64,000 bases of DNA from Escherichia phage vB_EcoM_PHB05, in sequence record NC_052652.1; one strand, written 5' to 3'. Both the position numbers and the translations under genes were made by a program. Under the pieces are notes generated by a model. It worked only from the letters and a program-made list of their open reading frames with translations, ran no database searches and had not been told where the DNA came from. Of this stretch, positions 2,455-53,857 are shown piece by piece. Within the stretch, counting starts at the first letter, position 1; each line of letters opens with the position of its first letter.

Positions 2455-3006
2455 ATGAAAAAAGATGTTATTTACACTGGCTTTGAACTATATCAACCAG
2501 AATTGACAGAAGAAAATGTCATGTATCTTTCAATAGGTGCTGGTTTTCTTAAAGATAAAGATGGTAATGATTGGTACGAAATTCAGAAATATTTATCCAA
2601 AAATTACCCTGATGCCTATTTCTTAACTCTAGATCACAACAATGTAGTTGTTGCAGCTACGAAAGATGTTTCTACATATTTTCCCGCTGGTCTTACTGTT
2701 CTTGTAACATACAATGTTCCAGATAAGATAGAAGAAGAAAGCAACCTAGGATCGTGGAGATATGACAATGGTAAGTTTGTTTCTCATAATGGGTTTGCAA
2801 TAGAAGATGCCAACCTTAAAATGGAAAAAGAATTAACTTGGGCCACAAATCAAATATCTGCAATTCAAGATTTAGAGGAATTACAAGGTTTATCTGAAGA
2901 ACAAAAAGATTGGTTAGGAAAAGTTAAACTATATCGTGCAACACTGATTCAAATTAACGTTGAAGATGCACCTAATATAACTTGGCCTACAAGACCTAAG
3001 AAATAG
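2455..3006 (+). CDS. Tail fibre assembly chaperone (Tfa-like)
   Basis: C-terminal signature typical of the phage tail-fibre assembly family: ISAIQDLEELQGLSEEQKDWLGKVKLYRATLIQINVEDAPNITWPTRP; RBS AGGAG upstream. Confidence 0.65.
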   Translation: MKKDVIYTGFELYQPELTEENVMYLSIGAGFLKDKDGNDWYEIQKYLSKNYPDAYFLTLDHNNVVVAATKDVSTYFPAGLTVLVTYNVPDKIEEESNLGSWRYDNGKFVSHNGFAIEDANLKMEKELTWATNQISAIQDLEELQGLSEEQKDWLGKVKLYRATLIQINVEDAPNITWPTRPKK

Positions 3007-3015
3007 GGGTAATGT

Positions 3016-3357
3016 ATGGAGCTAACAGAAGTATGGGATATCGCTAAAGAGGCGATTATCCCTCTTATTGGTGTAATCTGGGTGGTCTTCAAACAGAAGA
3101 TAGATGATATAGCAAGTGATTTGGATAAAATGGAAGACAAATACCGTGAACTAGAAAAGAAGTTGGTGTTTGTTGAATCCACTTATGCTACCAAAGCAGA
3201 ACTTGCTCAAATGCTTAACCAGATCAACTCTACATTAATGGCAAATAATACTGCCTTAGAACAGAAAATTGAAAAAATAATGGATTTAAAAAATGCTCCT
3301 GTTCAATTAATGCTAGAGGAGATTACGAAGCGCACACAAAGTAAGGACAAAAATTAA
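3016..3357 (+). CDS. Hypothetical small protein with N-terminal hydrophobic helix and coiled coil, 113 aa
   Basis: IIPLIGVIWVVF hydrophobic segment then charged helical region; ATG overlaps next gene start (TAATG at 3357). Confidence 0.35.
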   Translation: MELTEVWDIAKEAIIPLIGVIWVVFKQKIDDIASDLDKMEDKYRELEKKLVFVESTYATKAELAQMLNQINSTLMANNTALEQKIEKIMDLKNAPVQLMLEEITKRTQSKDKN

Positions 3358-5771
3358 TGGCGAATTTTCCAACATATCCTGCTACGACACTAGAACAAGG
3401 TGTTGATCTGGTTATATTCTCGTCTAACCAGATGCATGATGTTATTAACGGGGATGCTACAGCAACTGTAGAAACCGAAACAGGTTTAATACCTACACTG
3501 CGTAAAGCACTTGTTGATAACTTCTTCTTTAAGAGTCCTGTTGCTTGGTCAGCAGGATCAACTGAAACTGTATTTAACCAGTTACGTTATTTTGAAAACG
3601 GCATCTTGAGTGGGTACTACTATGCCCCATCTGCCACTACTGCGAACCCTGTACCTATGCAGGGTACACCTGTAGGAGACAGTAACTGGACTCTGTATGC
3701 TCTTAAAACTGAACAGTTAGCTTCAGATGTGTATCCTTGGTATTTTAAAGGTGCTACAGGGTATGAGACAGAAATCAGTCCTCCTTATATCTTTGATAAT
3801 GCTATTGTCACCATTAACGGTGTAATTCAGATTCAGGGTGAAGCATTTACTATCAAAGATAGTAAAATTATTCTGGCAGAACCATTAGGTTTAGATCCGT
3901 CTACTGGTCTACCTAACAAATTGTTTGCTTTTATTGGTAAAACAACAGCCTCTACTTCTTACGTAGAGAAAAACCTTTTGTCATCTACCACTGGTGCAGC
4001 AATGGTTGGTCTTCCATCTGGAGGCAATCTGTTACAAGCTCAATACTTTGTAACGCCTGAGCAGTTTGGTGCAATTGGTGATGGAGTTACCGATGATACT
4101 CAAGCAATTCTAAAAACCATTACTTTCGCTAACACGAATAACATTCAAGTACGTGCAGATAAGAATTATAGATTCACAAGCTCAATTGCTATGTCTGGTA
4201 TTCGTTGGTATGGTGGTACATTCACTGGTAACGGTGGAACAATGATTTCTACTGTGTCCTGTTGGATTGAAAACGTTCGCTTTGAAAAATGTTATGTTAA
4301 GATGTTAGGTGGTGATTGCCGATTCTATCGTAATATCTTCTCCAACGCAACATCTACAGCAGCATTCTTAATGCAAGCAATGACAAGTGAAGGTACGTTG
4401 GACTTCAGTTACAACGAGATGTATGGTTGTAAATATGCGATCCTGCAACAAGGTACTGGAGAAGTAATGACCTATGGGCGTTACTCTAACAACTACATTC
4501 ACGATATCAAAGGTGATGCTATTGAACTTAACGTAGTTCAAAGACACTACACTGAAGGTTTGATCATCGAGAATAACCACATTGCTAACGTAGATGCTTC
4601 TGGACAAGGTGCAAACTGGGGTATTGGTATTGGTGTAGCAGGTAGTGGCCCATATGGTGTTGATGCTCCTGATTCACAATATGTACGTAACTTCAGTATC
4701 GTTGGAAATAGAGTTTACAATTGCCGTCAATGTCTACACGTTGAAATGGGTAAAAACTTCACAATACGTGATAACGAAGTTTATCCTAACACAGCAGTTT
4801 CAACAGGTACAGGTTTAACTACTTGTGGTGTTGCATTATACGGATGCCAAGACTTTGAAGTTGATGGTTTAACTGGTTATCTGCTTAATGATCCGTCTGT
4901 TTCAACACGCATGGTCTTTATTGACTGGGGTGTTAACGGTGGAAGATATGCGGGGCCACCAATTAACTTTACAATTAAGAATTTGGATATTCCAGAATCT
5001 TCGATTGAGATTGCAACGGCTGGATCAGACGCCTGGGAAAACTCTACAATTGTTAGTAACATCAATTGTAATGATTTTAAATGGCGTGGGCTACCATCTA
5101 GCTCTACTTTTAATAATATTCGTTGCCGTAGTATTGACTTTATTGGTCAACACGGAAGCGGAGAAGGAAGTGGTGGCGGTTTCTATGCTCGCAGCCAATT
5201 CACTTATATGAAGTGGGTAGGATGTACAGCACTTAGCGGAGATGAAACAACAGTTTCTTTTGCTAAAATCTACACGGATCGTTGCGATCAGGTTGGAAAT
5301 AACTTTGGTGTTCCAACTGCTGTTGATGGTACAGGTCATCGTGGGCCAGTCTTAACCACTATTTCTGAACAATATTTTACAGATTATGATGAATTCCCAG
5401 GTGGGCGTGACTTCCCTACTGGAACAGTTATTCATTGTGCAAGCGGTAAAAAACACGTTGTTACAGTAGGTGGTGCTTTCTTTAGTAATAAAGAGAAAAT
5501 AAAAGCAACTGTTACAGGTCAAACCTATCTACAGTCTAATGCTTTAAACTGGGCTAGTAATGGCTACGCTAAAGCGGCAGGTACTAAGATTGTTATTCCA
5601 GGTGCAGGAGCAAATGGTGGCGATCTTGTGACAACTATAGCACGTGCTACATATGTGACAAATAGTTTGTACACAATAGATATTGCAGATCCAATTGTAA
5701 CACCTACAGCAGAGAATACACAAATTAAAGCTCTGAACCCTGTTACTTTTGTTACTGTCAATAATGCTTAA
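3357..5771 (+). CDS. Tailspike / receptor-binding protein with pectate-lyase-like right-handed beta-helix (putative polysaccharide depolymerase), 804 aa
   Basis: Motif QFGAIGDGVTDDTQAI characteristic of the pectate-lyase superfamily N-cap; repeated N/G/T-rich strands typical of a beta-helix. Confidence 0.6.
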   Translation: MANFPTYPATTLEQGVDLVIFSSNQMHDVINGDATATVETETGLIPTLRKALVDNFFFKSPVAWSAGSTETVFNQLRYFENGILSGYYYAPSATTANPVPMQGTPVGDSNWTLYALKTEQLASDVYPWYFKGATGYETEISPPYIFDNAIVTINGVIQIQGEAFTIKDSKIILAEPLGLDPSTGLPNKLFAFIGKTTASTSYVEKNLLSSTTGAAMVGLPSGGNLLQAQYFVTPEQFGAIGDGVTDDTQAILKTITFANTNNIQVRADKNYRFTSSIAMSGIRWYGGTFTGNGGTMISTVSCWIENVRFEKCYVKMLGGDCRFYRNIFSNATSTAAFLMQAMTSEGTLDFSYNEMYGCKYAILQQGTGEVMTYGRYSNNYIHDIKGDAIELNVVQRHYTEGLIIENNHIANVDASGQGANWGIGIGVAGSGPYGVDAPDSQYVRNFSIVGNRVYNCRQCLHVEMGKNFTIRDNEVYPNTAVSTGTGLTTCGVALYGCQDFEVDGLTGYLLNDPSVSTRMVFIDWGVNGGRYAGPPINFTIKNLDIPESSIEIATAGSDAWENSTIVSNINCNDFKWRGLPSSSTFNNIRCRSIDFIGQHGSGEGSGGGFYARSQFTYMKWVGCTALSGDETTVSFAKIYTDRCDQVGNNFGVPTAVDGTGHRGPVLTTISEQYFTDYDEFPGGRDFPTGTVIHCASGKKHVVTVGGAFFSNKEKIKATVTGQTYLQSNALNWASNGYAKAAGTKIVIPGAGANGGDLVTTIARATYVTNSLYTIDIADPIVTPTAENTQIKALNPVTFVTVNNA

Positions 5772-5774
5772 TTA

Positions 5775-5796
5775 AAAGGGGCGAAAGCCCCTTTAT
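5775..5796 (+). terminator. Rho-independent terminator hairpin (GGGGCGAAAGCCCC, T-run)
   Basis: GC stem with GAAA-type loop followed by TTTAT directly after the stop of the 804-aa gene. Confidence 0.6.
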
Positions 5797-5811
5797 AAAA
5801 GGAGTAGTAAA

Positions 5812-7782
5812 GTGATTTTAACACGTCCAAATAGTGCCATTGCAGACATGGTAGAGTCTCGCTATAGAAAGCGTAGAAGTTTTGCAAGTGGTTTTACCTT
5901 AAGAGATGCTCGTGAAGCATTGCTCTTTGAAGCTGACGGTAACTACTATCAGTGGAAAGGTTCTCTACCTAAAGTTGTACCTGCTAACTCTACTCCTACA
6001 TCCACTGGAGGGATTTCAGATACAGCTTGGAAAAATGTGGGTAATGCAGATGACATTGCTCAAATAGAATCAGAATTAGATGCTATTGAAGCTGAAATTG
6101 AAGATCTTAGAGAATCCATCCCAGAAGCTGGTAAATCAGCTTACCAGATTGCCGTAGACAATGGTTTCCAAGGTACTGAGACACAGTGGTTGGCTTCTTT
6201 AAAAGGTGATCCAGGTGCTCCATTAAAGCTATTAGGGACACTATCTAATACCAACCAATTACCTACAAGTGGAAACAATGCAGGGGATGCATGGATTGTA
6301 GGCGAGGATATGTATGCTTGGGATGGTACTGCTTGGAGAAAAGTAAACTCACAGGGGCCAGAAGGTAAATCTGCTTATGAAGTATGGCTTGCAGCAGGAA
6401 ATGAAGGTACAGAACTAGATTATCTTGCTTCAATTAAAGGTGATAAAGGGGAGCCTGGCCCAGAGGGGCCACAAGGTGTGCCAGGTAACAATGCTAATGG
6501 TTTTGATTACCAAGGCGCAGCTAATTCCGTTTCAGATCTTCCTTCTGCATCTCATGGAAACACATCTCAAGCATGGAGTGTTGGTACATATCTATACGTG
6601 TCAAACGGTGTAGAATGGATCAATATGGGCGCTATAGTGGGGCCAAAAGGAGATAAAGGCGACAAAGGAGATAAGGGTAACACTGGTGATTCAGCTTATC
6701 AAGTCTGGTTAAATGCTGGTAACGTTGGTACTATTGACGAATATATTGCCTCTCTGAAAGGAGAAAAAGGTGATAAGGGAGACAAGGGTGATCAAGGTGC
6801 ACAGGGTATACAAGGCTTGACGGGGCCAACTGGTGCAGGGTTGACCATTATTGACATTCTGACTAGCACTTCTGAACTGCCACAAACTGGGGAAGATGGT
6901 GATGGTTATCTGATCAATAATGAACTTTGGGTCTGGTTGCAAGGAGCCACAGAGTGGACAAATGTTGGTCGTTTAGCTGGTACTCCAATCACTGCAAAAG
7001 GACACGTTGCGTTTGCAAGTGCGCTTCCTCCTACAGCCAATTACGGTGATGCTTATCTGACGGAAGATACAGGTCATCTTTACATTTACACCTATAATGA
7101 ACAAACTCAAACTGCTGAATATGTAGATATGGGTAGTTTGAAAGGTGATAAGGGTGAAAAAGGTGAGAAAGGTGACGCTGGTACTAACGGTACAGACGGT
7201 GCAACTTGGATTGTTAAAACAACAGATCCAATCTCTAGTGATGGTAAACAAGGTGATTATGCCTTTAATATCTCCACTGGCGAAGTGTTCTTAAAAACAT
7301 CTGCAACTGTCTGGACTTCTCAAGGTACACTACCTAGTATCACAGATGCACCTAGTGATGGTAAGACTTATGCTCGTAAAGATGGGGCATGGGAAGAACT
7401 CACTAATTCTGTAGATGGTCAAGATATAGTTCCAACAAAAGTAACAACTAATTTTATAGAGGTTACAGCATATACCAATAATTCTGTTACAGGGGACTGG
7501 ACACCTCCAGGAACACATAACATGAATGTGTTGAATCTTACTGGTAACGCTACTATAAAAGCATGGCCTGGTGTCGAAGATAGTACAAAACCTAAACCAT
7601 TCTCTGCAATAGTTTATCTTATCCAAGATGCCACTGGAGGTCGTACTGTTACTTTAGATCCATCTTACAAAGTAATTGGTTCCAGTGATATTAATACAGA
7701 TCCTAACGGAGTAACAATACTACAACTAACATATTGTGGTGTTGGCGATTACGTGGATGCTATTGTTGCTAAACGCACATAA
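5812..7782 (+). CDS. Tail fibre protein with collagen-like Gly-X-Y repeats, 656 aa (GTG start)
   Basis: Four collagen-like runs, e.g. GDKGEPGPEGPQGVPG, GPKGDKGDKGDKGNTGD, GEKGDKGDKGDQGAQGIQGLTGPTGAG, GDKGEKGEKGDAGTNGTDG; RBS AAAGGAG 8 nt upstream. Confidence 0.6.
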   Translation: MILTRPNSAIADMVESRYRKRRSFASGFTLRDAREALLFEADGNYYQWKGSLPKVVPANSTPTSTGGISDTAWKNVGNADDIAQIESELDAIEAEIEDLRESIPEAGKSAYQIAVDNGFQGTETQWLASLKGDPGAPLKLLGTLSNTNQLPTSGNNAGDAWIVGEDMYAWDGTAWRKVNSQGPEGKSAYEVWLAAGNEGTELDYLASIKGDKGEPGPEGPQGVPGNNANGFDYQGAANSVSDLPSASHGNTSQAWSVGTYLYVSNGVEWINMGAIVGPKGDKGDKGDKGNTGDSAYQVWLNAGNVGTIDEYIASLKGEKGDKGDKGDQGAQGIQGLTGPTGAGLTIIDILTSTSELPQTGEDGDGYLINNELWVWLQGATEWTNVGRLAGTPITAKGHVAFASALPPTANYGDAYLTEDTGHLYIYTYNEQTQTAEYVDMGSLKGDKGEKGEKGDAGTNGTDGATWIVKTTDPISSDGKQGDYAFNISTGEVFLKTSATVWTSQGTLPSITDAPSDGKTYARKDGAWEELTNSVDGQDIVPTKVTTNFIEVTAYTNNSVTGDWTPPGTHNMNVLNLTGNATIKAWPGVEDSTKPKPFSAIVYLIQDATGGRTVTLDPSYKVIGSSDINTDPNGVTILQLTYCGVGDYVDAIVAKRT

Positions 7783-7785
7783 TCA

Positions 7786-7807
7786 AAGCCCCTTCGGGGG
7801 CTTATTA
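7786..7807 (+). terminator. Rho-independent terminator hairpin (AAAGCCCC TTCG GGGGCTT)
   Basis: UUCG-type tetraloop hairpin plus T-rich tail after the stop at 7782. Confidence 0.6.
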
Positions 7808-7821
7808 TTTAAGGAGATTAA

Positions 7822-10641
7822 ATGTATCCTATTCCTTTATTTATGTCAACAACATCAGCTTCAGTAGTAACAGCTACATCTATAACCACTTCCTCTATTG
7901 GTATTGCAATAGTTGGTAGTAAAAAGCAACTGACATACACAGTTTCACCAGAAGATGGTGCGTTATTTGATATAGCTTTTTCATCTTCAGATAATACCAA
8001 AATGGTTATAGATAATAATGGTATGATGGAGTTTGTTGCTGAAGGCGGTTTTGATGCAATAATGACAGCTAAAAATAATTTAGGTGCTGTCTTAACTGAT
8101 CAATCTGGTGGCTATGCTTCAGAATTAAGTGTGTACACTGAAAGTCTGTCTGCTATGGATGCAGGAACTACTCAACAATTGGTTGCTACAATCAGTCCAG
8201 AAGGTGCTAAAGACCTTCCAGACATGGTGATTACGTACACCACAACAGATCCAGAAGTAGCTACTGTAAGTCCTACAGGGTTAATAACTGCTCTTAAAGA
8301 TGGTAGTTGCCGTATAGGTTGTACTGCAACTTATCAAGGAACAGTGGTGGCCTCTGATAGTTCTTATTTAGGTGTTAATGCTGTTCCTGTTATTTCTAAT
8401 GTAACAGCCGTGGCAAACAGCTATGGAGACATTCGTGTTGCTTGGGATGTAGCTGATCCGCTAGATGGTGATACTTATACTGTAGAAGTATTAGATTTAA
8501 GTAATAACAGTGTCCAGTGGACTACAACAACCACGAATACTCATGCTTACTTTGATATCTCTGACTCTATTCCTCTTTATGGGTTTGCTCCAACATACCT
8601 TAAAATTAGCGTTAAGAGCACCAAAGCAGCACCCGTTATCTTTAATAACTCAATAGCTACAGATGATTCGTTCATTAAAGAAGTTATTGTCTTTGCTGGA
8701 CAAGATAACGTAAATGCACACTTTACAGAACTATCTGGTGCAAATAAAGCAGTAATGAGTAGCACAACAACCCGTAATGCATATGCTACGCAACGTGGTT
8801 TAGCAAATGCTGAAGTTCTTCCGTTAAATGCAGCTTCTGGATCATCAGCAGCAGATAAATATGCAGATGATAAAGCCGGAACAGGTACACCAGACAACTA
8901 CTGGTATGATCTGGATAACGCAGCAGATGGGCCATGCTTAACTAATTTTATCACTAAAGTCACACCTTATGCAAGTAAGGTTAAAGCAATTATTTGGGGA
9001 CAAGGTGAAAATGATGCTGTATCAGCATCTTCGACTGTTGCAGGTAGATACAGTAACACTACACGTTACCATGATGCTACGATAGCTATCTTTGATAAGA
9101 TGCGTACAATAGTTCCTGCTTCTCAAGCAAAAATTGTTTGGCAGATCCTAGGACGTTCTTATCTATATGGTGTAGAAGTTAATGGTGTGGATTGGCAGAA
9201 ATACAGAAATGTACAAAGAACCATCTCTACAGCACGTGACGATGTTATCATTGGTTCTTGGGTGGATGGTGCTGAACGCTACAGTGGTTATGTTTATGAA
9301 GAAGGTATTGATGGTCGTATCCATTATATTTCTTCTGTATACCAAACAGCAGCTACAAAACTTGCTAAATCAGCAGCAGACGGTACAGACTTAACATCAA
9401 CATCACCTGTTTGGGTTGATATGGCTGTTCCAACTGGAGCAACAGCTATTTCCCAAGCTAATCAAGATACAATTTTAGCATGGGATGCTCAAGGTTATAG
9501 TAAACACTACTTCCGTAATATTAACGTCTTAACAGCATCTGTATTAACTGAACAAACGCTTAATACGAACAGTTATACGTTTACCTATGCAGATCAAGTA
9601 GAACAATATGGTTTTGCAGCAGGTACTACGATATTTGATGTTGCATATTATGACGAAGCAAATGATGTGTTATCTCCTTTAGTACGTTTTAATGTTAGCG
9701 TTACAGCAGGAAAAGTAGAAGATAAACCTGTCGTGATGGACTATGATTTGACGCAAGAAACTCTTCCATCAGATGTTAAGGTTAATGGTGGGAACTCTTT
9801 TGCTCGTGCCTCTGGAGATATACTTGTAGCCACTAACACCTTGGTTGCTCCGTTGGAGTATGTTGGTACTACCCCTGTAGGTAGACGTGTAACAGCTAAC
9901 ACAGCTACACAAATTTTTGTCAACAACGCCTTAACAAGTGCAAGCCCGTGGGTAAAGACCAACTTAACTGTTGCAGCTTCATCTGATAAATCTCCGGCTG
10001 GAACTACTGCTAATGTATTCAAATTAACTCCGACTACAACCTCTGGTAGTCATATCTTAACTGCAACATATACTAACGCGTACAACATATCTGCCGGACG
10101 TAACTGGTCTGCCTCTGTTTTCTTGAAAGCGAACGGGATTACTAAGGCCAAACTAAGATTAAAAGCAGGAACTGAAGTTAATGAGGGTACTTTTGATTTA
10201 GCAGCAGGTACATTCACAGGAAGTGAAGCTAATATTATATCTATGGGCAACGGTTGGTATCGTGCTATTCTGCATAAAACAGGGATAGCCAAACAGTCCT
10301 CCATAAGTTTTGAAATAATTGCCTTGGATGCAACTGGTGCGGAGATTTTCGCTGGAGATGGTACTAGTAACCTTGCAGTTTGGTTGCCACAGCTTGAAGG
10401 TGCTTCTACAGGAGAAACATCAAAAGCTGGATCGCCTTATGTCTGCACATATCCTGGAAATTTAGGAGGAGTATCCTTCACTATACCAAGGAACGGACAT
10501 ACTGGTGTGGATGTTTACTATTCCAACGGAGACGTTGTTCGTGATGTATTCTCTGGCACAGCATCTACTTGGACAATAAACTACTCCAGCTTGTACGATT
10601 GGGGATCAGTCTTTATTACAGGTTTGAAATATTACGACTAA
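7822..10641 (+). CDS. Large tail fibre / receptor-binding protein with Ig-like (BIG2-type) segment and SGNH/sialate-O-acetylesterase-like carbohydrate esterase region, 939 aa
   Basis: BIG2-like stretch (ATVSPTGLITALKDGSCRIGCTATYQG); esterase-like blocks VFAGQDNVNAHF and AIIWGQGENDA resembling GQSN and W-QGE blocks of O-acetylesterases. Confidence 0.5.
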   Translation: MYPIPLFMSTTSASVVTATSITTSSIGIAIVGSKKQLTYTVSPEDGALFDIAFSSSDNTKMVIDNNGMMEFVAEGGFDAIMTAKNNLGAVLTDQSGGYASELSVYTESLSAMDAGTTQQLVATISPEGAKDLPDMVITYTTTDPEVATVSPTGLITALKDGSCRIGCTATYQGTVVASDSSYLGVNAVPVISNVTAVANSYGDIRVAWDVADPLDGDTYTVEVLDLSNNSVQWTTTTTNTHAYFDISDSIPLYGFAPTYLKISVKSTKAAPVIFNNSIATDDSFIKEVIVFAGQDNVNAHFTELSGANKAVMSSTTTRNAYATQRGLANAEVLPLNAASGSSAADKYADDKAGTGTPDNYWYDLDNAADGPCLTNFITKVTPYASKVKAIIWGQGENDAVSASSTVAGRYSNTTRYHDATIAIFDKMRTIVPASQAKIVWQILGRSYLYGVEVNGVDWQKYRNVQRTISTARDDVIIGSWVDGAERYSGYVYEEGIDGRIHYISSVYQTAATKLAKSAADGTDLTSTSPVWVDMAVPTGATAISQANQDTILAWDAQGYSKHYFRNINVLTASVLTEQTLNTNSYTFTYADQVEQYGFAAGTTIFDVAYYDEANDVLSPLVRFNVSVTAGKVEDKPVVMDYDLTQETLPSDVKVNGGNSFARASGDILVATNTLVAPLEYVGTTPVGRRVTANTATQIFVNNALTSASPWVKTNLTVAASSDKSPAGTTANVFKLTPTTTSGSHILTATYTNAYNISAGRNWSASVFLKANGITKAKLRLKAGTEVNEGTFDLAAGTFTGSEANIISMGNGWYRAILHKTGIAKQSSISFEIIALDATGAEIFAGDGTSNLAVWLPQLEGASTGETSKAGSPYVCTYPGNLGGVSFTIPRNGHTGVDVYYSNGDVVRDVFSGTASTWTINYSSLYDWGSVFITGLKYYD

Positions 10642-11856: not shown

Positions 11857-12804
11857 TTAGAAACAGTGCAGGAAGTTTCGACCATATTGCAAACCAATAG
11901 GAGCAAACGGGATATCATCATCGAAATCTTGAACAACAGGTTCTGGTTCTTTCGGTGCTGGCTCTTTCTTCTCTACTTTTTTAGTTTCTTTCTTAACTTC
12001 TTGTACTGGGGTAGACATTCCACGGATAGCCGCAGCTACTTTATCAGACAAAGCAAGAACTTCACGAGCAGCTTCAATAATCTCTTCTGCCGTTACAGTT
12101 TTACCTGTATGATCACGACAAGCGTTAAGAATTGCGTGTCCAACTGAAGCACCAAGATCATAGTCAGTCACATCAACACCACGATCTTTAGCAATTTCAG
12201 CTTTCAGAGTAACAGTTGCAGATTGTACCACACCAGCCAAATCGAAAGCATCACCTTTCACACCAGCACGTAGAAGCTCCAGAGCGCCGTTTACAGCGTG
12301 TCCTGTTTCAATCCCTACGGTATCACGTTTTTTGTAGTTAGGCTTGTTACCGTCATTATTAGATGGCTTATTTCCACCTTTTGAAGAGGATTGCGCTTGC
12401 TGAACACCTTCTGTTGAAAGAATAGTGATTTTACCTTTAGAGGAGTTGTAGTATGTTTTGCCATTCCATTCAGAAGGTTTAACATCCATAGTTAGTTCTA
12501 CACCTTTTTCGATAGTAACCCACTTATCACCATCTTTAACTTGCAGGTTTTCATGTTCTGGGTGCAGTTTAACTTCACCTAAGCTAACCCAAACACCTTT
12601 ATCATCAGCACCAGCACCTTTCTCTTTAATAAGCAGAGATGCTTTGTGAGTTGATTCAATTTTCTTATCTGGCTGACCTGCAACCTTAATATAAGAAACT
12701 TTCATTTCATCAAACTTATCTAGTTTGACATATTCGACAATACCTTCAGCCCAGAATGCTTCTTTTTTAGTACGACGGTCGATTTCAGAATTAATTACTG
12801 GCAT
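11857..12804 (-). CDS. Putative DNA-binding / replication accessory protein carrying an SSB-like acidic motif (DFDDDIPF), 315 aa
   Basis: Motif DFDDDIPF matches the bacterial SSB C-terminal tail but here is followed by 15 further residues; Lys/Glu-rich linker; no clear OB-fold seen by eye. Confidence 0.35.
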   Translation of the reverse strand: MPVINSEIDRRTKKEAFWAEGIVEYVKLDKFDEMKVSYIKVAGQPDKKIESTHKASLLIKEKGAGADDKGVWVSLGEVKLHPEHENLQVKDGDKWVTIEKGVELTMDVKPSEWNGKTYYNSSKGKITILSTEGVQQAQSSSKGGNKPSNNDGNKPNYKKRDTVGIETGHAVNGALELLRAGVKGDAFDLAGVVQSATVTLKAEIAKDRGVDVTDYDLGASVGHAILNACRDHTGKTVTAEEIIEAAREVLALSDKVAAAIRGMSTPVQEVKKETKKVEKKEPAPKEPEPVVQDFDDDIPFAPIGLQYGRNFLHCF

Positions 12805-12820
12805 AAATTCTCCTCTATAA

Positions 12821-13219
12821 TTACATTACTTTAACACAAAACTCTCGTAAAAGAGTAGCGTCAGTTTCTTCCAACAGGTATTTACCAAGACCAATACCAA
12901 ATCCTATTTCACCACTTTCAAAATGGAGAATTTGTATCTTTTCTCCACCAAGGTTAATTACTTTTGCTTTTCCAGGATTGTCCAAAACATCTCGTATTGT
13001 GTCCTGTAGTAGCATAAGTTCACGTTTTGTGATAGTGGTTTCAGATATCTCTTTGTCTTCTACCCGCACTGTTAAACGGTTGTATCCACCAAAGAGACAT
13101 AGTATTTGAATAAAAAAGGTATTATCTTGAGGTTCAACATCTTTTTTAGTTAGTTCAAGACGATTAGTTTCTCTACTATAGAACGTCTCGACTAAGATTT
13201 TAGAACGATTGTCTGTCAT
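12821..13219 (-). CDS. Hypothetical protein, 132 aa
   Basis: Track ORF in co-directional packed array; no motif recognised. Confidence 0.4.
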   Translation of the reverse strand: MTDNRSKILVETFYSRETNRLELTKKDVEPQDNTFFIQILCLFGGYNRLTVRVEDKEISETTITKRELMLLQDTIRDVLDNPGKAKVINLGGEKIQILHFESGEIGFGIGLGKYLLEETDATLLREFCVKVM

Positions 13220-13262
13220 TCAAGTTCTCATAATAACACATAATTGTAAGGTTTGTCAACAC

Positions 13263-13877
13263 TTAAATCTTAAATTCTTCGTTGTTAAACGAATCCAGTG
13301 TACGTACTTCTGGTTCTTTGGGAATGAAAACGTCTTTTACAAAGCGGAACATAGGGAAACGTTCTGCCATTTTACGGACGTGTGCTTCTTTACCTGTGTA
13401 TCGGTGATTAATAGTGCAAATATTAGTCTTCAATGCAAAGTCAAAATCTGGATGATATACATAATTTTGACCATCCCAGTAACACAGGCAAATAGCTACG
13501 TCAAAGTTCCATACGATTTCACTGCGTACACCCTCTTCCATGATCATAAAGTTAAACTTAAGATCTTTATAGTATGCTTCAAATACCCATTTCAAATGTG
13601 GTAGTTCGGCATAAGTGTGTTCTGTTTGCTTAGTAAGTTGTTTAACATTACGTGCACCAACACCCAACATCAAAAATTTCTCTACCAGTACGGTTGTATT
13701 GTGGTTAGGCATACGCAAGTAAATGTCAATATCTTGCGCAGGTGTTTCTAATCGCCAGTCGCGTACAGCGCCGCCAGCTACAATTGCAAACGGATCTACC
13801 AGTTGGCACATACGTAATACTTCTAAAGCGCGTACTTTTTGATCTTCAATATTCATATTTTCTCCTATCGTGTCCAC
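13263..13877 (-). CDS. Nucleotidyltransferase (Pol-beta superfamily, CCA-adding / poly(A) polymerase head-domain-like), 204 aa
   Basis: Signature GGAVRD followed by DIDIYL (GGxVRD...DxD) typical of the tRNA nucleotidyltransferase/PAP head domain; protein is much shorter than full-length CCA enzymes. Confidence 0.5.
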   Translation of the reverse strand: MDTIGENMNIEDQKVRALEVLRMCQLVDPFAIVAGGAVRDWRLETPAQDIDIYLRMPNHNTTVLVEKFLMLGVGARNVKQLTKQTEHTYAELPHLKWVFEAYYKDLKFNFMIMEEGVRSEIVWNFDVAICLCYWDGQNYVYHPDFDFALKTNICTINHRYTGKEAHVRKMAERFPMFRFVKDVFIPKEPEVRTLDSFNNEEFKI

Positions 13878-14461
13878 TCTTTATGTTGTTCTACATGCTC
13901 AAGCATTTCATTATACAGTGCTTTAAGATGTGGAACAACTCTTTCATCTTCAGTTTCAAAGAATTTTGTAAGCTGTTCTGCTTTAGCTTTCAACCAGCAA
14001 AGATGCGCTTCAATTTCAGTATTAAAACGCCCCAGCGTTTTCATGCGACCGTCTACTTTTATATTGGCTTTGTATTTATTACGATCTTTTTCGTAACTAC
14101 AGCCTACCATAGTTCCATGAGATCTTTTACTTACTCTATAAGCTAAGAACTTATTAAGATCTCCTGTTACTAAAAGACAGGTATCGGGAGAGTAAACCCT
14201 CCCTCCTATAATATCTTTATCAAGTTCTAAGTTTTCCCAGTTTTCCCAAGTTTGCAACCAGGAGTAGAAATTTGAGAACAGTTTCCATTCTTCACAAACC
14301 GTCACCCCCTTATAACAAGGATCACGTTCTTGTTGGCAAGGGGAGTAACACCTCCCCAACATAGCCATCCATTTCATATAATGCGGCGTTAGTTTCTTAC
14401 TACCAGGTAGCGTACTCTCGCCTTGCAAATCATTAATACCTTCACCATATACGGTAAGCAT
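13865..14461 (-). CDS. AP2-domain DNA-binding protein, likely HNH-family homing-endonuclease-like, 198 aa
   Basis: C-terminal AP2-like pattern KYKANIKVDGRMKTLGRFNTEIEAHLCW; N-terminal W/Y/C-rich motif MKWMAMLGRCYSP...YKGVTVCEEW common in phage AP2/HNH proteins. Confidence 0.45.
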   Translation of the reverse strand: MLTVYGEGINDLQGESTLPGSKKLTPHYMKWMAMLGRCYSPCQQERDPCYKGVTVCEEWKLFSNFYSWLQTWENWENLELDKDIIGGRVYSPDTCLLVTGDLNKFLAYRVSKRSHGTMVGCSYEKDRNKYKANIKVDGRMKTLGRFNTEIEAHLCWLKAKAEQLTKFFETEDERVVPHLKALYNEMLEHVEQHKEWTR

Positions 14462-14488
14462 AAAAACTCCTTTAAAATCAAAGAGATG

Positions 14489-17068
14489 TCAGTGACAACT
14501 GGCCCATGAGTTACCAACATCGTAACCAGCAGTGAGAGGTACATTAAGATTGTAATACTCACCAGCTTTATTAACAGCGATAGATGCTAATTCTCCAGCA
14601 CGACTGTAGGCTGTAAACCAACCACCTTTCGGAGATTCATGTACGTTAGCCCAAATCTTGCCAGTACGTTTCTCTTCCTCTTCTTTCCAGGCGTTAACTT
14701 TATCCAAACATTCTTTATCAATTTTCTTTTGTTCTTCTGGATCATCAACTTGAGTCCAACCTAAAGATTCTTTAGAGAACCATTTAAAATGAACCAGATC
14801 ACGAGTTACTTCAAGCTGTGCTTCATCGTGATATGCAATCATTTGTTGAACGAATGACTTATTTTTCCAGTCATCAACAAAAAAGTCAACAGCTAATCCT
14901 TCTTCTTCGATAAGATCGTCGTAGATAACCATTGCTCTTTTTGCACAAATAACACCACCACTCTGGAACAGAGAGTTAAGTATTGCGTGTGCAGATCGTG
15001 TAGGTACTTTCCTACCATCAATACCCAGAATGTATTTCTTACCTGTTTTAACCCAGAAATCATGCAGACGTTCTTTAAGAAGTGCAAGAGGTTTTGCAGC
15101 TTCCCAGAAAGCATCGTATACAAGCTGTCCTGTATACATATCACTACCAATAGTTTTTGCTACTTTTGCAGCTTGAGCACCATAAGTAATACCATACTTA
15201 ACAGATTTAGCAGGGCTTCGTTCAAACTTACGACCAATAGTATCAGAAATACGTCGAGCCATCATTGTATGAACATCATTAGGTTTTTCCAACAACAGAG
15301 CATTACAATATTCGTGTGGTTCCTGCTCGTACCGCCAACAGTAGTGTGATTCTATTTTTGCCTCAAGAGAATCAAAGTCATAACCAATTTGGAAGTATTT
15401 TGGAACTTCTACACCAAATAAGTTACGCATTTCATATCCGTACAGAGATGTTACACGTGGGATATTTGCTACTAACCTATGTTTCATACGAGACGTAGCT
15501 GCATCACACGTTGCAGCAGGAGTTGGTATACGACCATCAGCCCTTACTGCCGCCAGATAACCTTTATCGTAATCCTCTTCATCTTCTTCCCAATCAGCGC
15601 CACCCCCTAGAATAGAGTTTCTACGATGTTTATACGTAAGATACTGCACAATCTGCGTAGCATAAGGAAACTTTTCACCTAGTGCTTCCAAGTTAGGACA
15701 AATATCCTTCTCTTGCCCTTTTGTAAAGGAAGGGTTAGTAAGCACTTTAACACCACGACCTTTAGCTTTAGCAATACGATCTCTTAGTTTCCATTCCAAA
15801 GTTTCTGGTGTGCACTCCAGATGATCACATCTGTCCTGGCAGAAGTTAGATGCTAATGTTTGATCAACATAGTCACGAATAGCTTTCTCCATTTGTGCTT
15901 CATCTTTCTTAATCTTAGTGCCAGATTTAAGAGTGATATCTTTATCTTTATATTCAGATGGACTCCAACCTAAACCAACTAACCAATTTTTAATATGTGT
16001 AGTGTCGTCTAAAGTAGCAGGCACTGTAGGATCACAAATAGGTTCTTCTGCTGGAATAGGTAGTTTAAACTCTTTACCTAATGCAAATAACCACCAACCA
16101 TCTTCTTTTTGTACAAGTTCACCAGAATGTTTCTCTGCAAACTTTATCATGTTACTTGAAGGCTCACCATTCTTTTTAAACTGGAGTTTAGGTGGAATGA
16201 ATGATTTCAAATAACCTTTAGTAGCAGGTTTAGGAGGTAGCACAGGTTCTGCCTCTAAACGACATGCTTCCATTCGAGCATCCAGATCACGAATATTATC
16301 TTCTGCTTGTTTCATATTGAAAGCAAAGCCACGGTGCTCTTGACGTGTAATAATATCAGCTACACGTTGTTCTAAGTTAAATGGTTCAGACCACTTATTA
16401 TAATCACCCCACTCTTCCATCAAATAACGGAACACTGCGGTGTTAGCTTTGTTATCGTAAATACAGTAATACAGCATATCTGCTGCAAATGTTCTAAATC
16501 TTTCAGTTTCAGGAATGTTTTTTCTAAAATCAATTTTAACATCCCCTCCAGCTTTCTTAGATAACTCTGCCAGACTATGACCACCGAAGCGATCAGGGTT
16601 TAGTGTCTTACTTAAGATCATAGTATCACAAATTTCAATGTTACTATTACCCCAAGTATTGTACTTAATACTGTAGTTGAGTTTAAAAAATAATTTAATT
16701 GCCAGTAAGTCGAAGTTAATGATGTTGTGTCCAACTACTTTGGTAATTTTATAGTTTGAATTACCTTTAAATTTACCTGTTCCATTTACAAAATCAGGAA
16801 AATCTTTAAGAGGGAAATGGGTATATTCTAAATGCTCATATTCCTCCAGTCGGTATTCATACTTTCCGTCAGTCTCAATATACGGACGACCATCGAAAAG
16901 ATATTTATCACCATCATGGAAAGCAATAATCTCTCCAGTATCATGACTTTCACACACAATACAGTGCATTGCAAAACTATCTTTTAAACGATATGGACTT
17001 GCCAAGTAATCTACACTTTCGTCATTAAGCAAGTTGTTACTTTCAATGTCGAAAGTAAAAGCTCCCAT
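14489..17068 (-). CDS. DNA polymerase, family A (T7 gp5-like) with 3'-5' exonuclease domain, 859 aa
   Basis: Exo motif FDIESNNL at N-terminus; block TMILSKTLNPDRFGGHSLAELS parallels T7 gp5 TLVLSRLIHSNL...GSHALEAWG; size and Lys/Tyr-rich palm region consistent with Pol I family. Confidence 0.85.
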   Translation of the reverse strand: MGAFTFDIESNNLLNDESVDYLASPYRLKDSFAMHCIVCESHDTGEIIAFHDGDKYLFDGRPYIETDGKYEYRLEEYEHLEYTHFPLKDFPDFVNGTGKFKGNSNYKITKVVGHNIINFDLLAIKLFFKLNYSIKYNTWGNSNIEICDTMILSKTLNPDRFGGHSLAELSKKAGGDVKIDFRKNIPETERFRTFAADMLYYCIYDNKANTAVFRYLMEEWGDYNKWSEPFNLEQRVADIITRQEHRGFAFNMKQAEDNIRDLDARMEACRLEAEPVLPPKPATKGYLKSFIPPKLQFKKNGEPSSNMIKFAEKHSGELVQKEDGWWLFALGKEFKLPIPAEEPICDPTVPATLDDTTHIKNWLVGLGWSPSEYKDKDITLKSGTKIKKDEAQMEKAIRDYVDQTLASNFCQDRCDHLECTPETLEWKLRDRIAKAKGRGVKVLTNPSFTKGQEKDICPNLEALGEKFPYATQIVQYLTYKHRRNSILGGGADWEEDEEDYDKGYLAAVRADGRIPTPAATCDAATSRMKHRLVANIPRVTSLYGYEMRNLFGVEVPKYFQIGYDFDSLEAKIESHYCWRYEQEPHEYCNALLLEKPNDVHTMMARRISDTIGRKFERSPAKSVKYGITYGAQAAKVAKTIGSDMYTGQLVYDAFWEAAKPLALLKERLHDFWVKTGKKYILGIDGRKVPTRSAHAILNSLFQSGGVICAKRAMVIYDDLIEEEGLAVDFFVDDWKNKSFVQQMIAYHDEAQLEVTRDLVHFKWFSKESLGWTQVDDPEEQKKIDKECLDKVNAWKEEEEKRTGKIWANVHESPKGGWFTAYSRAGELASIAVNKAGEYYNLNVPLTAGYDVGNSWASCH

Positions 17069-17158: not shown

Positions 17159-17554
17159 TTATTTATTGTCAGCACTTAATTGTACTTTAATAAGGCAATT
17201 AGGGACACCATTGGTATTTCTCAAGCCTACACGGTCAATTTTAACTGTTCCTGTTAAGCCACTAAAAGTGGAAACAATGTTATTAATGTTTTCATCCTTA
17301 CTAGCGATATCAAGAACAACTTTATCACTAACATTTTTCAGCATGCGATCTACAAGCTCTCCCACAAAACCACTGGTAGTTTGAATGAGAAGGTATAGGC
17401 AACCATCCTCAAACCACAAATGTTCGCCATAAGCATAACCGTATGGTTCTAACTCCGATCCATCTTGAAATTTAAACTTGGCAATAGTTTTCGTATAATC
17501 ATACCCTAACGCAGAAGGGGATACCCCATAGAGGATATTTTCGTTGTCTTTCAT
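17159..17554 (-). CDS. Hypothetical protein, 131 aa (start trimmed to the internal ATG with RBS)
   Basis: Track ORF 17159..17683 overlaps the primase-helicase gene; internal Met (MKDNENILYG) at 17554 has RBS AAGGAGAGAAAT and follows the upstream stop. Confidence 0.4.
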   Translation of the reverse strand: MKDNENILYGVSPSALGYDYTKTIAKFKFQDGSELEPYGYAYGEHLWFEDGCLYLLIQTTSGFVGELVDRMLKNVSDKVVLDIASKDENINNIVSTFSGLTGTVKIDRVGLRNTNGVPNCLIKVQLSADNK

Positions 17555-17564
17555 ATTTCTCTCC

Positions 17565-19337
17565 TTAATAAGAACCATCAGGAATATTCTCTGGGTTACT
17601 TGTGTATTGATCGTAATCGTGAAGTGTCGCTGTTTTAATCTCATAGAAGAAACTACCTGCTGCACCAGTCTCTGAGAACTCACGGTTCTTTAGGATGTAG
17701 CAATATGTGCGGTTACGTTCCATAGGATCTTCAGCTTGTTTATCACGCTCCAGCGCAATTGTGATACCAGCACCTTTAGCAAGGAAGCTACTACCCATTG
17801 CATCATCTTCTACAATATGTTCATTACTATTGTTAGAAGACTTTTTAACGTGTGAAATTACAACAATGGTAATTGCGTACTCTTTCATAATGCGTTTGAG
17901 CCACGTCGCAAGTTCCTCTTGTTGTGACACGTCCATACCAGAAAGCAAGTCAGAATAAGGGTCGATAACAAGAATGGTTACTCCGAAATAAATAATCATT
18001 TCCAGAACCTTCTCTTTAATCACATCTACGTTAGCTCCACGATCATCACAAACATAGAAACGTGGTGTTCCATCTTCTCGTTCGTAAAAATCACGAATCT
18101 TTTCTTCATTATCTTTTAAAATCTTTTCCTTCTCTTCTTTTGTTTTACGGTGAAGAGGGATGTGCAAGAATGAAGACAATAAGTTACGAGAATACTTCTT
18201 ATACGTTGCCTCCAAAGATAAAATACCAAGAGTATGTTCTGGGTGTGCAAGAATAATGTGCTTTGTAATCTCGTTAACCAACAGTGTTTTACCGATACTT
18301 GTTTTTGCAAGTATAACAGTAATTTCTTCTTCTACCAAGCCTCCACCTAACATATTAGAAGCAACACGCATGAATGGAGGAAGGGTGATCATTTTAGCTT
18401 CCAGGCATTCCAAGGCTGCTTCATACAGTACGTTAGAAGCATAAACACCAGCAGGTGTGTACAGTTTAGCTTTGAAAAAACGATCAAGAAAGTGATCAAT
18501 TTTTCCTTCTACTAGTGCCTGGTTAGGATCTTTAACATCCGTTAGTTCCATCACATAAACTTTATTACGTGGTAAGATTTTAACACATTTCTCAACTGCT
18601 GCACGTCCAGCTTCATCATTATCCATACACAGAACAATCTTTTTAAATTGATCTAAAAATTTATAACGATGTTGAAGCTGCTTATGCAGAGATGTTTCGC
18701 CACAAGTACCAGATACTACAGCAGGAACAGGATATTTACCGCCCTTGTTATAATCTTTTAGCATCTGTGTTGCAGCCAGCATATCGTGTTCACCACCAAC
18801 GATTAGAATAGTACCGCTGTGGTTACGATATTTAAACTCCCCAAAAAGATCACAATCCTTTCCTGTTTCACCAATAGGATGTGAAAAATCTTTTGGATCG
18901 ATACGTTGTTTATACCCAGCAATATTGTAATCTTTAGTTGTAGGGTATAATGTTGAAATTACTTCGCCAGTAGCTTCATCGTACATATAGCGTACACCGA
19001 AAGGTTTAGAGATATCTTCACGAATACCGCGATAACCTTTTGGATTAGTTCCAGTGCTGGCTTTTAGCTTATCATGTACTTCTGGATTAAACTCACTACC
19101 CAAGATATCCTCCTCTTCAATTTCTTCGCCGTGTGCATTTAACCATTTTTGATCAGGGATAGTAAAGCCACAAGAAAAACAATGTGCGCCTCGATGGTCT
19201 TCATCGGCATCTAAGCCATATACCATCAAATTGTTTTGTGATCGATCACGCCCTCCTTTCATACAACGAGGACACCCAGTATGTCCTTCTTGACTTAGGT
19301 CAATGTTATACCCATATTTATTTACAACATAAGACAC
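17565..19337 (-). CDS. Bifunctional DNA primase-helicase (T7 gp4-like: zinc-binding domain, TOPRIM, DnaB-family helicase), 590 aa
   Basis: Zinc ribbon CPRC...CFSC; TOPRIM block ILIVGGEHDMLA...CMDNDEAGR; Walker A AKTSIGKT and Walker B-like VIDPYSDL in C-terminal half. Confidence 0.85.
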   Translation of the reverse strand: MSYVVNKYGYNIDLSQEGHTGCPRCMKGGRDRSQNNLMVYGLDADEDHRGAHCFSCGFTIPDQKWLNAHGEEIEEEDILGSEFNPEVHDKLKASTGTNPKGYRGIREDISKPFGVRYMYDEATGEVISTLYPTTKDYNIAGYKQRIDPKDFSHPIGETGKDCDLFGEFKYRNHSGTILIVGGEHDMLAATQMLKDYNKGGKYPVPAVVSGTCGETSLHKQLQHRYKFLDQFKKIVLCMDNDEAGRAAVEKCVKILPRNKVYVMELTDVKDPNQALVEGKIDHFLDRFFKAKLYTPAGVYASNVLYEAALECLEAKMITLPPFMRVASNMLGGGLVEEEITVILAKTSIGKTLLVNEITKHIILAHPEHTLGILSLEATYKKYSRNLLSSFLHIPLHRKTKEEKEKILKDNEEKIRDFYEREDGTPRFYVCDDRGANVDVIKEKVLEMIIYFGVTILVIDPYSDLLSGMDVSQQEELATWLKRIMKEYAITIVVISHVKKSSNNSNEHIVEDDAMGSSFLAKGAGITIALERDKQAEDPMERNRTYCYILKNREFSETGAAGSFFYEIKTATLHDYDQYTSNPENIPDGSY

Positions 19338-50488: not shown

Positions 50489-51616
50489 ATGAAATACACG
50501 ATTTATGGTGATATTGTAAGTGTAAATAAAGATATGGGTGTGGAATCTAATTATCTTCCACCTGGATTCTATACTGTTAGTCGTGATCCCCTTGGCAATT
50601 ATTTTTTAAGCCGTGGTAATCTAACAGGTGTACCGGATGTTCTGTATGGTGAAACAGAAAAACGAGCAAATCACGTTATCCGTACATTCCATCGCCGGAG
50701 TGCACAAGGTAAAAATACAGGTTTGCTTCTGACAGGAACTAAGGGCAGTGGTAAAACTATGTTAGCCAAGCTCATTAGTCGTGACCTTGTAGAAGAAGGT
50801 ATTCCAACTATTATGGTTACTCAAGCCTACAGTGATGCTAATTTCATTGAACTTATTAGCAAGATCACCGACAAAGCAGTGATTATTTTTGACGAGTTTG
50901 ATAAAGTATATGAGAAGAAACAAGATCAAGAAGCACTTCTCACTTTGTTAGATGGTACTGGCAGTGGTAATAAACTGTTTATTCTAACTAAAAACAGTGG
51001 CTTTATCTCTGAATTCTTTCTAAATCGTCCTAGTCGTGTGTTTTATAATTTTAATTATGATAAAATCTCACTAGAAACTATGATTGACTATTTAGATAAA
51101 AACCTGGATAACAAAGCACACTTTGATAATTTCCAAAGACTTTGGGATGTAAGTTTAGAGTTGTCCTTTGATGTGATCCAAGGTATAGTAGAAGAACTTA
51201 ATTTCTACCCTGATTTATCCTTTAAAGAATGCATCTCTATGATGGGCGTTTCTTTGGGTGGTGGTAATAAATGGGATATCAGTAGCGTTATTATTAATGG
51301 AAAACTTCAGAAAGTTAGCTGGGTATCTAGTTGGCATAACTTTACACCTGCAATCTTTTTAGGTGGCTCGTGCACACTAGACGTGTACTTGTCATCTCCA
51401 AGTGATGCAGATTCTAAAGAAGCCCTTGCTAATAGCTCTTACGTGGTTTTTGATGATGAAGGCGATGCTCGAATTCCGTTGAATGCGACAAAAATGAAAG
51501 CAGACCTTATCACAGGCGGTAAAATCGTTGTGTTTAGTGATGATCCAGAAGATTCTTTCCGTATTGTTCTGGAACCAACTATCACCAATGGTGCAACTTT
51601 GGCAAGTGTGTTTTAA
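50489..51616 (+). CDS. P-loop AAA+-type ATPase, copy B (paralogue of 34564..35724), 375 aa
   Basis: Walker A GTKGSGKT, Walker B VIIFDEFDK, ILTKNSG, NRPSRVFY; N-terminal 80 aa and ATPase core align with copy A, C-terminal third diverges. Confidence 0.6.
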   Translation: MKYTIYGDIVSVNKDMGVESNYLPPGFYTVSRDPLGNYFLSRGNLTGVPDVLYGETEKRANHVIRTFHRRSAQGKNTGLLLTGTKGSGKTMLAKLISRDLVEEGIPTIMVTQAYSDANFIELISKITDKAVIIFDEFDKVYEKKQDQEALLTLLDGTGSGNKLFILTKNSGFISEFFLNRPSRVFYNFNYDKISLETMIDYLDKNLDNKAHFDNFQRLWDVSLELSFDVIQGIVEELNFYPDLSFKECISMMGVSLGGGNKWDISSVIINGKLQKVSWVSSWHNFTPAIFLGGSCTLDVYLSSPSDADSKEALANSSYVVFDDEGDARIPLNATKMKADLITGGKIVVFSDDPEDSFRIVLEPTITNGATLASVF

Positions 51617-51632
51617 GTAAGCCAGCAAATAA

Positions 51633-51656
51633 AAACCCGCTTCGGCGGGTTTTCTT
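51633..51656 (+). terminator. Rho-independent terminator (AAACCCGC TTCG GCGGGTTTTCTTG)
   Basis: 8-bp stem, UUCG loop, T-run. Confidence 0.65.
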
Positions 51657-51690
51657 GTATTGATGCCAGATTTAATAAAAGGAGTAGTAG

Positions 51691-53415: not shown

Positions 53416-53631
53416 TATTTTGAAAATTTTTATTTTTATAAAAAGGGGTGTGGGTTTCATGTACGGAAATCCACCCTCTGAATAATATATCCAGAGTAAG
53501 TAGTATTCTATACCCTGTTAATAAAGTATTTAATTTGTTTGTTGGACTATGGTATCTGATCTTTAAAAGGCATACTATCTCTTAACTACTACTTATAACA
53601 GAACAGTAAAATCATTTTTATAAAAAGTACA

Positions 53632-53845: not shown

Positions 53846-53857
53846 GGGTATGCGTAT

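Follow-up and report, generated by a model that had tools for sequence, protein, structure and literature searches.

The two genes analysed here lie side by side on the minus strand of Escherichia phage vB_EcoM_PHB05 (NC_052652.1), in a stretch of 64,000 nucleotides (nt) that is referred to as the window. One encodes a nucleotidyltransferase (NTase) of 197 amino acids (aa) and the other, which precedes it in the direction of transcription, a 198-aa protein with an AP2 DNA-binding domain. Between positions 12800 and 14600 the window has 98.6% DNA identity with Escherichia phage W22 and 92 to 98% with 25 other full-length phi92-like matches; judged by its sequence, it is from the genome of a Justusliebigvirus (phi92-like, Stephanstirmvirinae). 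The window is colinear with phage W22, the annotation of which, from position 82594 onwards, matches the window in its coordinates. The order of transcription is DNA polymerase, AP2 gene, NTase gene, two conserved hypothetical genes and a methyltransferase gene (Table 1). Both the AP2 gene and the NTase gene are real conserved genes, not chance open reading frames (ORFs), and each has hundreds of distant homologues. Both are also ordinary, in that near-identical genes are already public and named, the RefSeq labels being 'nucleotidyltransferase' and 'HNH endonuclease'. The useful outcome is therefore one of re-labelling, in which the NTase is seen as a full-length member of the Gad2 (anti-Gabija) family rather than as a truncated CCA-adding enzyme. 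An original prediction, made from the sequence of this locus, holds for the NTase motif, the missing domains and the homing-like character of the AP2 gene. It does not hold for the overlap of the genes, their orientation, the terms 'truncated' and 'HNH-like' and, most likely, a role in tRNA repair.

Table 1. Features of the polymerase, AP2 and NTase region, with positions given in the window.
Feature	Position	Strand	Details
Family A DNA polymerase gene	14489..17068	-	859 aa; Pfam DNA_pol_A and annotation
Polymerase-AP2 spacer, 27 nt (polymerase stop to AP2 ATG)	14462..14488	-	holds the AAAGGAG Shine-Dalgarno of the AP2 gene
AP2 gene, 198 aa	13865..14461	-	freestanding, endonuclease-like; annotated 'HNH endonuclease'; apparently a mobile, dispensable insert
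AP2 N-terminal conserved domain, aa 22-111	14129..14398	-	W31, M34, R37, W59, F65, W68, LDKD...YSPDTC...N; putative catalytic; no solved relative
AP2 strand-strand-helix element, aa 78-106	14144..14230	-	LELDKDIIGGRVYSPDTCLLVTGDLNKFL; predicted; D81, K82, D83 and N103 invariant
AP2 DNA-binding domain, approximately aa 117-165, then C-terminal helical tail	13967..14113	-	profile matches
21 nt added by the longest ORF (GTG start)	13857..13877	-	last AP2 codons, TAG stop 13867-13865, Shine-Dalgarno AGGAG 13866-13862
NTase gene, 197 aa	13263..13856	-	Pol-beta-type NTase of the Gad2 family (PF26128), stand-alone; has the head fold of class II CCA/PAP enzymes
NTase motif A, aa 27-46	13719..13778	-	AGGAVRDW...DIDIY; helix-turn Gly pair and two metal-binding Asp

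The original prediction gave the NTase as a 204-aa protein, the gene of which overlapped the AP2 gene by 13 nt. Both ORFs exist on the minus strand (13263-13877, with a GTG start, and 13865-14461, 198 aa), but 204 aa is the length of the longest ORF and the protein is likely to be 197 aa, with its start most likely at the ATG at 13856 and not at the GTG at 13877. The AGGAG is 5 nt upstream of this ATG and overlaps the TAG stop of the AP2 gene. The gene is annotated as 594 nt in RefSeq, phi92 and W22, and 158 of 245 NTase family members have their first residue aligned with the Met of this ATG. Relatives without the AP2 gene have an in-frame TAA in the extension, at the place of the window's codon after the GTG. 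The additional 21 nt probably contribute no codons to the NTase, and the 13-nt overlap is an artefact of taking the longest ORF; from the ATG at 13856, 8 nt lie between the AP2 stop and the NTase start. The AP2 gene had also been placed directly upstream of the polymerase gene. It is directly downstream of it, all of these genes being on the minus strand, and the short spacer between the two has stayed the same in those relatives that are without the AP2 gene.

The GGxVRD...DxD signature that had been proposed for the NTase is present as motif A. A single-sequence word-indexed search with the NTase returned its own cluster only, and an exhaustive HMMER scan was needed to find the family; 483 cluster representatives (50% identity) match it, nearly all of 175 to 235 aa. 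Searches of the NTase and the AP2 protein against Protein Data Bank sequences with phmmer gave nothing useful. Across 245 relatives of the NTase, G28, G29, D42 and D44 are invariant, A27, A30, R32, D33, W34 and A40 are at least 90% conserved, and R32, D33, W34, Y82 and K162 are nearly invariant. [quoted passage not shown] A PHROGs profile also matches the protein as a nucleotidyltransferase (1.6e-34). It was rightly predicted that no body or tail domains are present in these 197 aa. It does not follow that the protein is truncated: 245 of the 259 relatives collected are 160 to 260 aa, with a median of 198, which makes this the normal size for the family. Scanning the longer members (284 to 400 aa) for fused domains gave no Pfam match.

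The family to which the NTase is assigned is that of Gad2, a 400-aa anti-Gabija protein and predicted nucleotidyltransferase of Bacillus phage SPbetaL7 (Yirmiya et al.). This assignment rests upon precomputed PF26128 (Gad2) matches and upon our own hhalign comparison. The precomputed matches (E<=1e-5) are to a 99%-identical protein of the NTase cluster and to most of the family members. Aligned with hhalign to the SPbetaL7 Gad2 sequence, as taken from the supplementary table of the Gad2 paper, the NTase family profile gave a probability of 90% and an E value of 1.6e-6 over 115 columns with 23% identity. The alignment runs from motif A to the FD..C strand (query 11-145, Gad2 16-134). In BLASTP of the NTase against Gad2, the motif A region only is matched (E 1e-4). 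The NTase therefore has the Pfam match and homology to the founding Gad2, without the full architecture of approximately 400 aa. Both proteins are phage-encoded Pol-beta-type NTases with an N-terminal domain containing AGGA...D.DIY, a hydrophobic strand and FD..(I/V)C. A literature search for PF26128 by its identifier found nothing. From its sequence, the NTase is taken to be a complete stand-alone Pol-beta-type nucleotidyltransferase of the phage Gad2 family. As a whole subfamily of E. coli phages that are easy to work with, phi92 among them, has kept it, it could serve as a minimal model of the Gad2 mechanism; Bas60-62 are Justusliebigvirus phages as well (BASEL paper).

All members of the NTase family come from phage or phage-like contexts, and in most of these, repeatedly in unrelated phages, the gene has replication and nucleotide-metabolism genes around it. 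The gene is kept in both genera of the Stephanstirmvirinae, Justusliebigvirus and Phapecoctavirus. Between the window and Phapecoctavirus nieznany, where the gene is at 2828-3421 of piece L011, the NTases are 36% identical, compared with 74 to 86% for the polymerase, 74% for the AP2 gene and 56% and 63% for the two downstream genes. This low identity may be due either to fast evolution or to xenologous replacement. A similar neighbourhood is found in the unrelated Curvibacter phage P26059A, where, at 3956-8498 of piece L018, the NTase is followed by an HNH homing endonuclease, a primase/helicase, an HNH endonuclease and DNA polymerase B. The NTase homologue of Vibrio phage ICP1_2001_A, at 3459-4035 of piece L019, has a DNA ligase gene on one side and the NAD-salvage genes for PRPP synthetase and NadV on the other. 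Two short ORFs stand for it in the annotation and residues 3-126 only are matched, so the gene is possibly split or frameshifted.

The AP2 domain of the neighbouring protein is real. There are profile matches to plant AP2/ERF structures, the three-stranded sheet, helix and signature of the AP2/ERF fold are present, and Pfam AP2 is matched in 10 of 40 relatives. The protein matches phrog_953 (E 7e-75) and 123 homologues were collected. In this family W31, W59, F65, W68, D81, K82, D83, Y90, C95 and N103 are invariant, the last six of these across relatives down to 32% identity. All of these are in the N-terminal domain, where an AlphaFold2 model (pLDDT 93) has, by DSSP, strands at residues 78-81 and 96-99 and a helix at 100-106. 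The term 'HNH-like' had been applied to this protein and is not supported for its N-terminal domain. No Pfam HNH domain was found in 40 relatives (E<=0.1), and an hhalign comparison to I-HmuI, the sequence of which was confirmed as 1u3e, gave a probability of 0.06%. The names in PHROG and RefSeq are the sole source of 'HNH' for the family; behind this widespread annotation there are labels and no HNH active site that could be detected. A variant of the HNH fold in which the His is missing would be possible. The protein resembles the AP2-domain homing endonucleases of phages and cyanobacteria, and HNH enzymes of the I-HmuI type (1u3e), in being small and modular with an AP2 DNA-binding domain. 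It further shares with them a freestanding gene by or within replication genes and a patchy distribution. It differs from I-HmuI and the HNH enzymes in its N-terminal domain, which has no detectable similarity to theirs and has an invariant Lys (LDKD) at the position read by eye as that of the HNH His.

The distribution of the AP2 gene is that expected of a mobile element. With tblastn, the family was found at 1852 places in 1207 phage records, from phages of Vibrio, Rheinheimera, Bacillus, Pseudomonas, Acinetobacter and other hosts, a sporadic, multi-copy spread across unrelated phages. At a fixed intergenic site by a conserved gene, 26 Justusliebigvirus records have the AP2 gene and at least 23 others that were listed, phi92 among them, do not. 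In the phage outra there has been a recent internal deletion that left 87 nt of the 5' end and approximately 65 nt of the 3' end, and the other Justusliebigvirus genomes without the gene still have the Shine-Dalgarno and ATG that belonged to it and, from its 3' end, approximately 80 nt of diverged remnant. In the sister genus the gene comes directly after the polymerase in Phapecoctavirus nieznany, as a complete cassette from Shine-Dalgarno to stop (piece L011, 4005-4620). The same site is cleanly empty in phAPEC8 (piece L013, 2845-2893), where a 49-nt spacer with a GC-rich hairpin, AAGGGGCTTCTGCCCCTT, is found instead. This hairpin, between the polymerase stop and the next Shine-Dalgarno, is exactly replaced by the AP2 cassette in nieznany. 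The downstream neighbour differs between the genera, indicating that the AP2 gene is tied to the 3' end of the polymerase gene and not to the NTase. In Bacillus phage SBSphiJ4 the AP2 N-terminal domain, with other C-terminal modules, is in an ORF between two DNA polymerase ORFs. The gene had been predicted to be homing endonuclease-like, and the comparison across genomes that was suggested as a check agrees with this: it is not in all relatives, its presence varies at the same site in two genera, and its family is sporadic and multi-copy. It fits a freestanding homing endonuclease-like element, a tidy mobile cassette with an exact empty site in the sister genus.

Taken together, the best explanation of the locus, and on balance a probable one, is that it contains two functionally unrelated genes: a stand-alone Gad2-family NTase with a role in phage-host conflict and a selfish AP2 gene of the homing endonuclease-like kind. 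The head fold and the GG...RD...DxD motif A that class II enzymes have are retained by the NTase, which would thus keep their catalytic chemistry. It is without the parts that would give tRNA-CCA specificity, these being the EDxxR template, the RRD-type motif B, which we take to be typical of class II enzymes, and the body and tail domains that bind tRNA. It probably still binds a nucleoside triphosphate with Mg2+ and transfers the nucleotide to an acceptor hydroxyl, and during infection it would modify a nucleic-acid end or some other target in the conflict with the host. In the AP2 protein, the C-terminal AP2 domain would supply DNA recognition and the N-terminal LDKD...N domain would be the presumed nuclease. 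From the short spacer behind the polymerase gene, the AP2 gene would be gained and lost independently of its neighbours. An active enzyme is in keeping with the toxicity of Gad2 when expressed and with the cytotoxic effect of a Gad2-family NTase from phage Emajogi. The confinement of the NTase family to phages and the low identity of the NTase between the genera also speak for this explanation.

Several observations weigh against this explanation as regards the NTase. The link to Gad2 is remote, as the low identity over 115 columns shows. Gad2 has GGAITS where the window NTase has GGAVRD(W), and it has approximately 200 additional C-terminal residues, whereas the window NTase ends after the NTase domain. 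Among the rows listed of the tables of Gad2 homologues that Yirmiya et al. derived by BLAST, none is a GGA[PV]RD(W) protein and 27 are of the GGAITS type. E93, the candidate third carboxylate, is acidic in only some 67% of the 245 relatives. Gad2 comes from a temperate Bacillus phage, where its anti-defence locus is variable, whereas the window NTase is near the polymerase gene and is a core gene of the Stephanstirmvirinae, which looks more like a replication or housekeeping gene than an accessory anti-defence gene. Anti-Gabija activity has been shown only for Gad2 and a Brevibacillus homologue. The Gabija nuclease is of the OLD family, and its neutralisation by Gad2 is NTase-dependent, by a mechanism listed as unknown in 2026. 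To say that the window NTase works like Gad2 therefore predicts little.

For the AP2 protein, the points to be set against a homing endonuclease concern both its activity and its movement. With LDKD read by eye against the 'DH' of HNH enzymes, the invariant K82 is at the position of the HNH His, and the domain has no conserved His. No nuclease fold or family was detected in the N-terminal domain, and nuclease activity is an assumption. The remnants in Justusliebigvirus mean that the polymorphism there reflects loss and is not a demonstrated invasion. Among 7 alleles, the variants in the final 330 nt of the polymerase gene are mosaic and none tracks the presence of the AP2 gene. Between the genera the AP2 gene is about as conserved as the polymerase, so vertical descent with repeated loss may also explain its distribution. 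DNA identity between the genera is not raised around the AP2 gene (77%, compared with 72 to 77% over the rest of the polymerase), which is uninformative as to a recent transfer.

It is conceivable, though rather unlikely, that the AP2 protein has no nuclease function and instead acts as a regulator that binds DNA, or is what remains of a homing endonuclease after domestication or degeneration, with its patchiness reflecting dispensability only. The missing catalytic His and the lack of a recognisable nuclease family or fold would suit this, as would the label 'DNA-binding protein' in some records of relatives and the fact that the Justusliebigvirus alleles without the gene are deletion remnants and not naive sites. 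However, the invariance of D81, K82, D83, Y90, C95 and N103 over such distances argues for a conserved active or metal site. The occurrence of multiple copies within genomes and of the same domain between the polymerase ORFs of SBSphiJ4 also speaks against a regulator or relic, as do the clean cassette insertion in nieznany relative to phAPEC8 and relatives with modular Zn-ribbon repeat fusions, which are typical of homing endonucleases.

A more specific form of the Gad2 connection can be put forward only tentatively. The GGA(P/V)RDW...DxD proteins of approximately 190 aa may be the minimal catalytic core of Gad2, without an acceptor domain, that tails or caps nucleic-acid ends (phage DNA or host RNA) or nucleotidylates a host factor, so blinding OLD-family or end-sensing nucleases such as Gabija. 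A second possibility is that the LDKD...N proteins with AP2 domains are a family of His-less, Lys-dependent nucleases that has been mislabelled as HNH. If the former were true, this core gene of the Stephanstirmvirinae would offer a simple and tractable E. coli model for the Gad2 mechanism.

It is doubtful, and somewhat less probable again, that the NTase is a minimal tRNA nucleotidyltransferase, restoring the 3'-CCA of host or phage tRNAs in the face of host nucleases or CCA-modifying toxins. In favour are the shared motif A, the closest solved folds named above, the label 'putative tRNA nucleotidyl transferase / poly(A) polymerase' given to relatives, the 16 tRNA genes of the phage along with its tRNA-related enzymes, and the tRNA-repair role that the literature assumes for phage CCA enzymes. 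However, the NCBIfam CCA equivalogs score 13.7 and 13.8 bits on the NTase, against cut-offs of 281 and 290, and so do not identify it as one of them. Pfam PolyA_pol scores 20 bits, below its gathering score of 23, and is matched in only 11 of 57 family members (E<=0.01). No PolyA_pol_RNAbd or tRNA_NucTran2 Pfam domains were found in the NTase. The EDxxR template of motif D is not conserved: the nearest string, E157-A-H-V-R161, is without the Asp, and the family has K, P, A or R at 158 and K, Q, E or T at 161, the structural equivalence of these columns being presumed. In selection experiments on this motif, replacement of the Asp or the Arg was never recovered (PMC11784652). Nor does a protein of 197 aa leave room for a tRNA-binding body or tail, class II enzymes being approximately 370 to 450 aa. 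Compared with solved CCA-adding enzymes of class II and with bacterial poly(A) polymerase I (1miv, 3h37, 4wby, 1ou5, 3aql), the window NTase is at most half the size and is without EDxxR, body and tail. The stand-alone 'CCA-adding enzyme head domain' of Streptococcus pneumoniae (NP_344798.1, 191 aa, 2la3) has 9% identity to the NTase and is bacterial and chromosomal; no sequence-level relationship between the two was detected.

The tRNA genes of the phage also fail to call for such an enzyme. No tRNA genes were found in the window. In W22, a cluster of 16 is located at 50974-53854, outside the window, and each has a genomic 3' CCA. De novo CCA synthesis is therefore not needed, although repair need not be covered by this argument. 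E. coli encodes its own Cca. In the part of the W22 genome that was inspected, approximately 126 of 149 kb, the annotation lists neither an RNA ligase nor a Pnkp partner. The proposal that a truncated CCA enzyme repairs tRNA 3' ends thus meets a full-length PF26128 member with scores far below the CCA cut-offs, no EDxxR, and CCA encoded in 16 of 16 tRNA genes. In addition, the 3' ends had been said to be cleaved by anticodon nucleases, which cut the anticodon loop and not the 3' end. The NTase is probably not a housekeeping CCA-adding enzyme, and a counter-defence or nucleic-acid-modifying role would be more likely than CCA repair.

Action of the NTase upon the host is also unlikely, slightly more so than tRNA repair. 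This could take the form of poly(A) polymerase-like tailing of RNA, or of nucleotide addition to tRNA acceptor ends, as by MenT or AbiEii, that shuts off translation. The toxicity seen in the Gad2 family upon over-expression is non-specific and there is no direct evidence for an RNA substrate. PADLOC gave no defence-type NTase match for the protein, its toxin NTase families included, and the fold is much nearer to the class II enzymes than to MenT.

It is very improbable that the NTase makes a nucleotide signal or decoy, such as a cyclic dinucleotide that jams host sensors: small phage Pol-beta NTases of the MNT-like type do make 3'3'-cGAMP and c-di-AMP and inhibit TIR-STING (Ho et al., 10.1101/2022.06.09.495361), and the window NTase is likewise small and stand-alone, without an acceptor domain and with an intact metal site, but those proteins, also with a counter-defence role, are of another clade with GS...SDxD rather than GG...DxD. 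The signal synthase that had been offered as the other role for this gene gains no support from the CD-NTase models or from the GS...SDxD and NP-x-h2[DE] motifs, none of which the NTase matches.

With a simple consensus scan, no sigma-70-like promoter was found for the AP2 gene or the NTase gene and no terminator was found between them. The polymerase, AP2 and NTase genes are therefore probably one transcription unit, with the latter two co-transcribed behind the polymerase gene. A near-consensus sigma-70 promoter is found at 13230-13259 on the minus strand, with TTGACA, an 18-nt spacer, TATTAT and a TG extended -10 (11 of 12 matches). It is directly 3' of the NTase stop and ahead of the gene at 12821-13219, which suggests a transcription unit boundary.

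Elsewhere in the region, the gene at 11857-12804 on the minus strand encodes a 315-aa 'hypothetical' protein that has an acidic motif, DFDDDIPF, near its C-terminus like that of single-strand DNA-binding proteins. It has a weak match to a single-strand DNA-binding PHROG and is annotated as such a protein in some relatives. A small 'endonuclease/hydrolase' gene (17159-17578, minus strand) is between the polymerase and primase/helicase genes, its start overlapping the end of the latter. The DNA polymerase of the window is without an intein, at 859 aa; its counterparts in phi92, in PD06 and in a relative from a metagenome have 1104 aa. In nieznany it is 1189 aa, with an insert of approximately 325 aa between residues 626 and 628. 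From these alignments, the polymerase insert appears as a second mobile-element polymorphism at the same locus as the AP2 gene.

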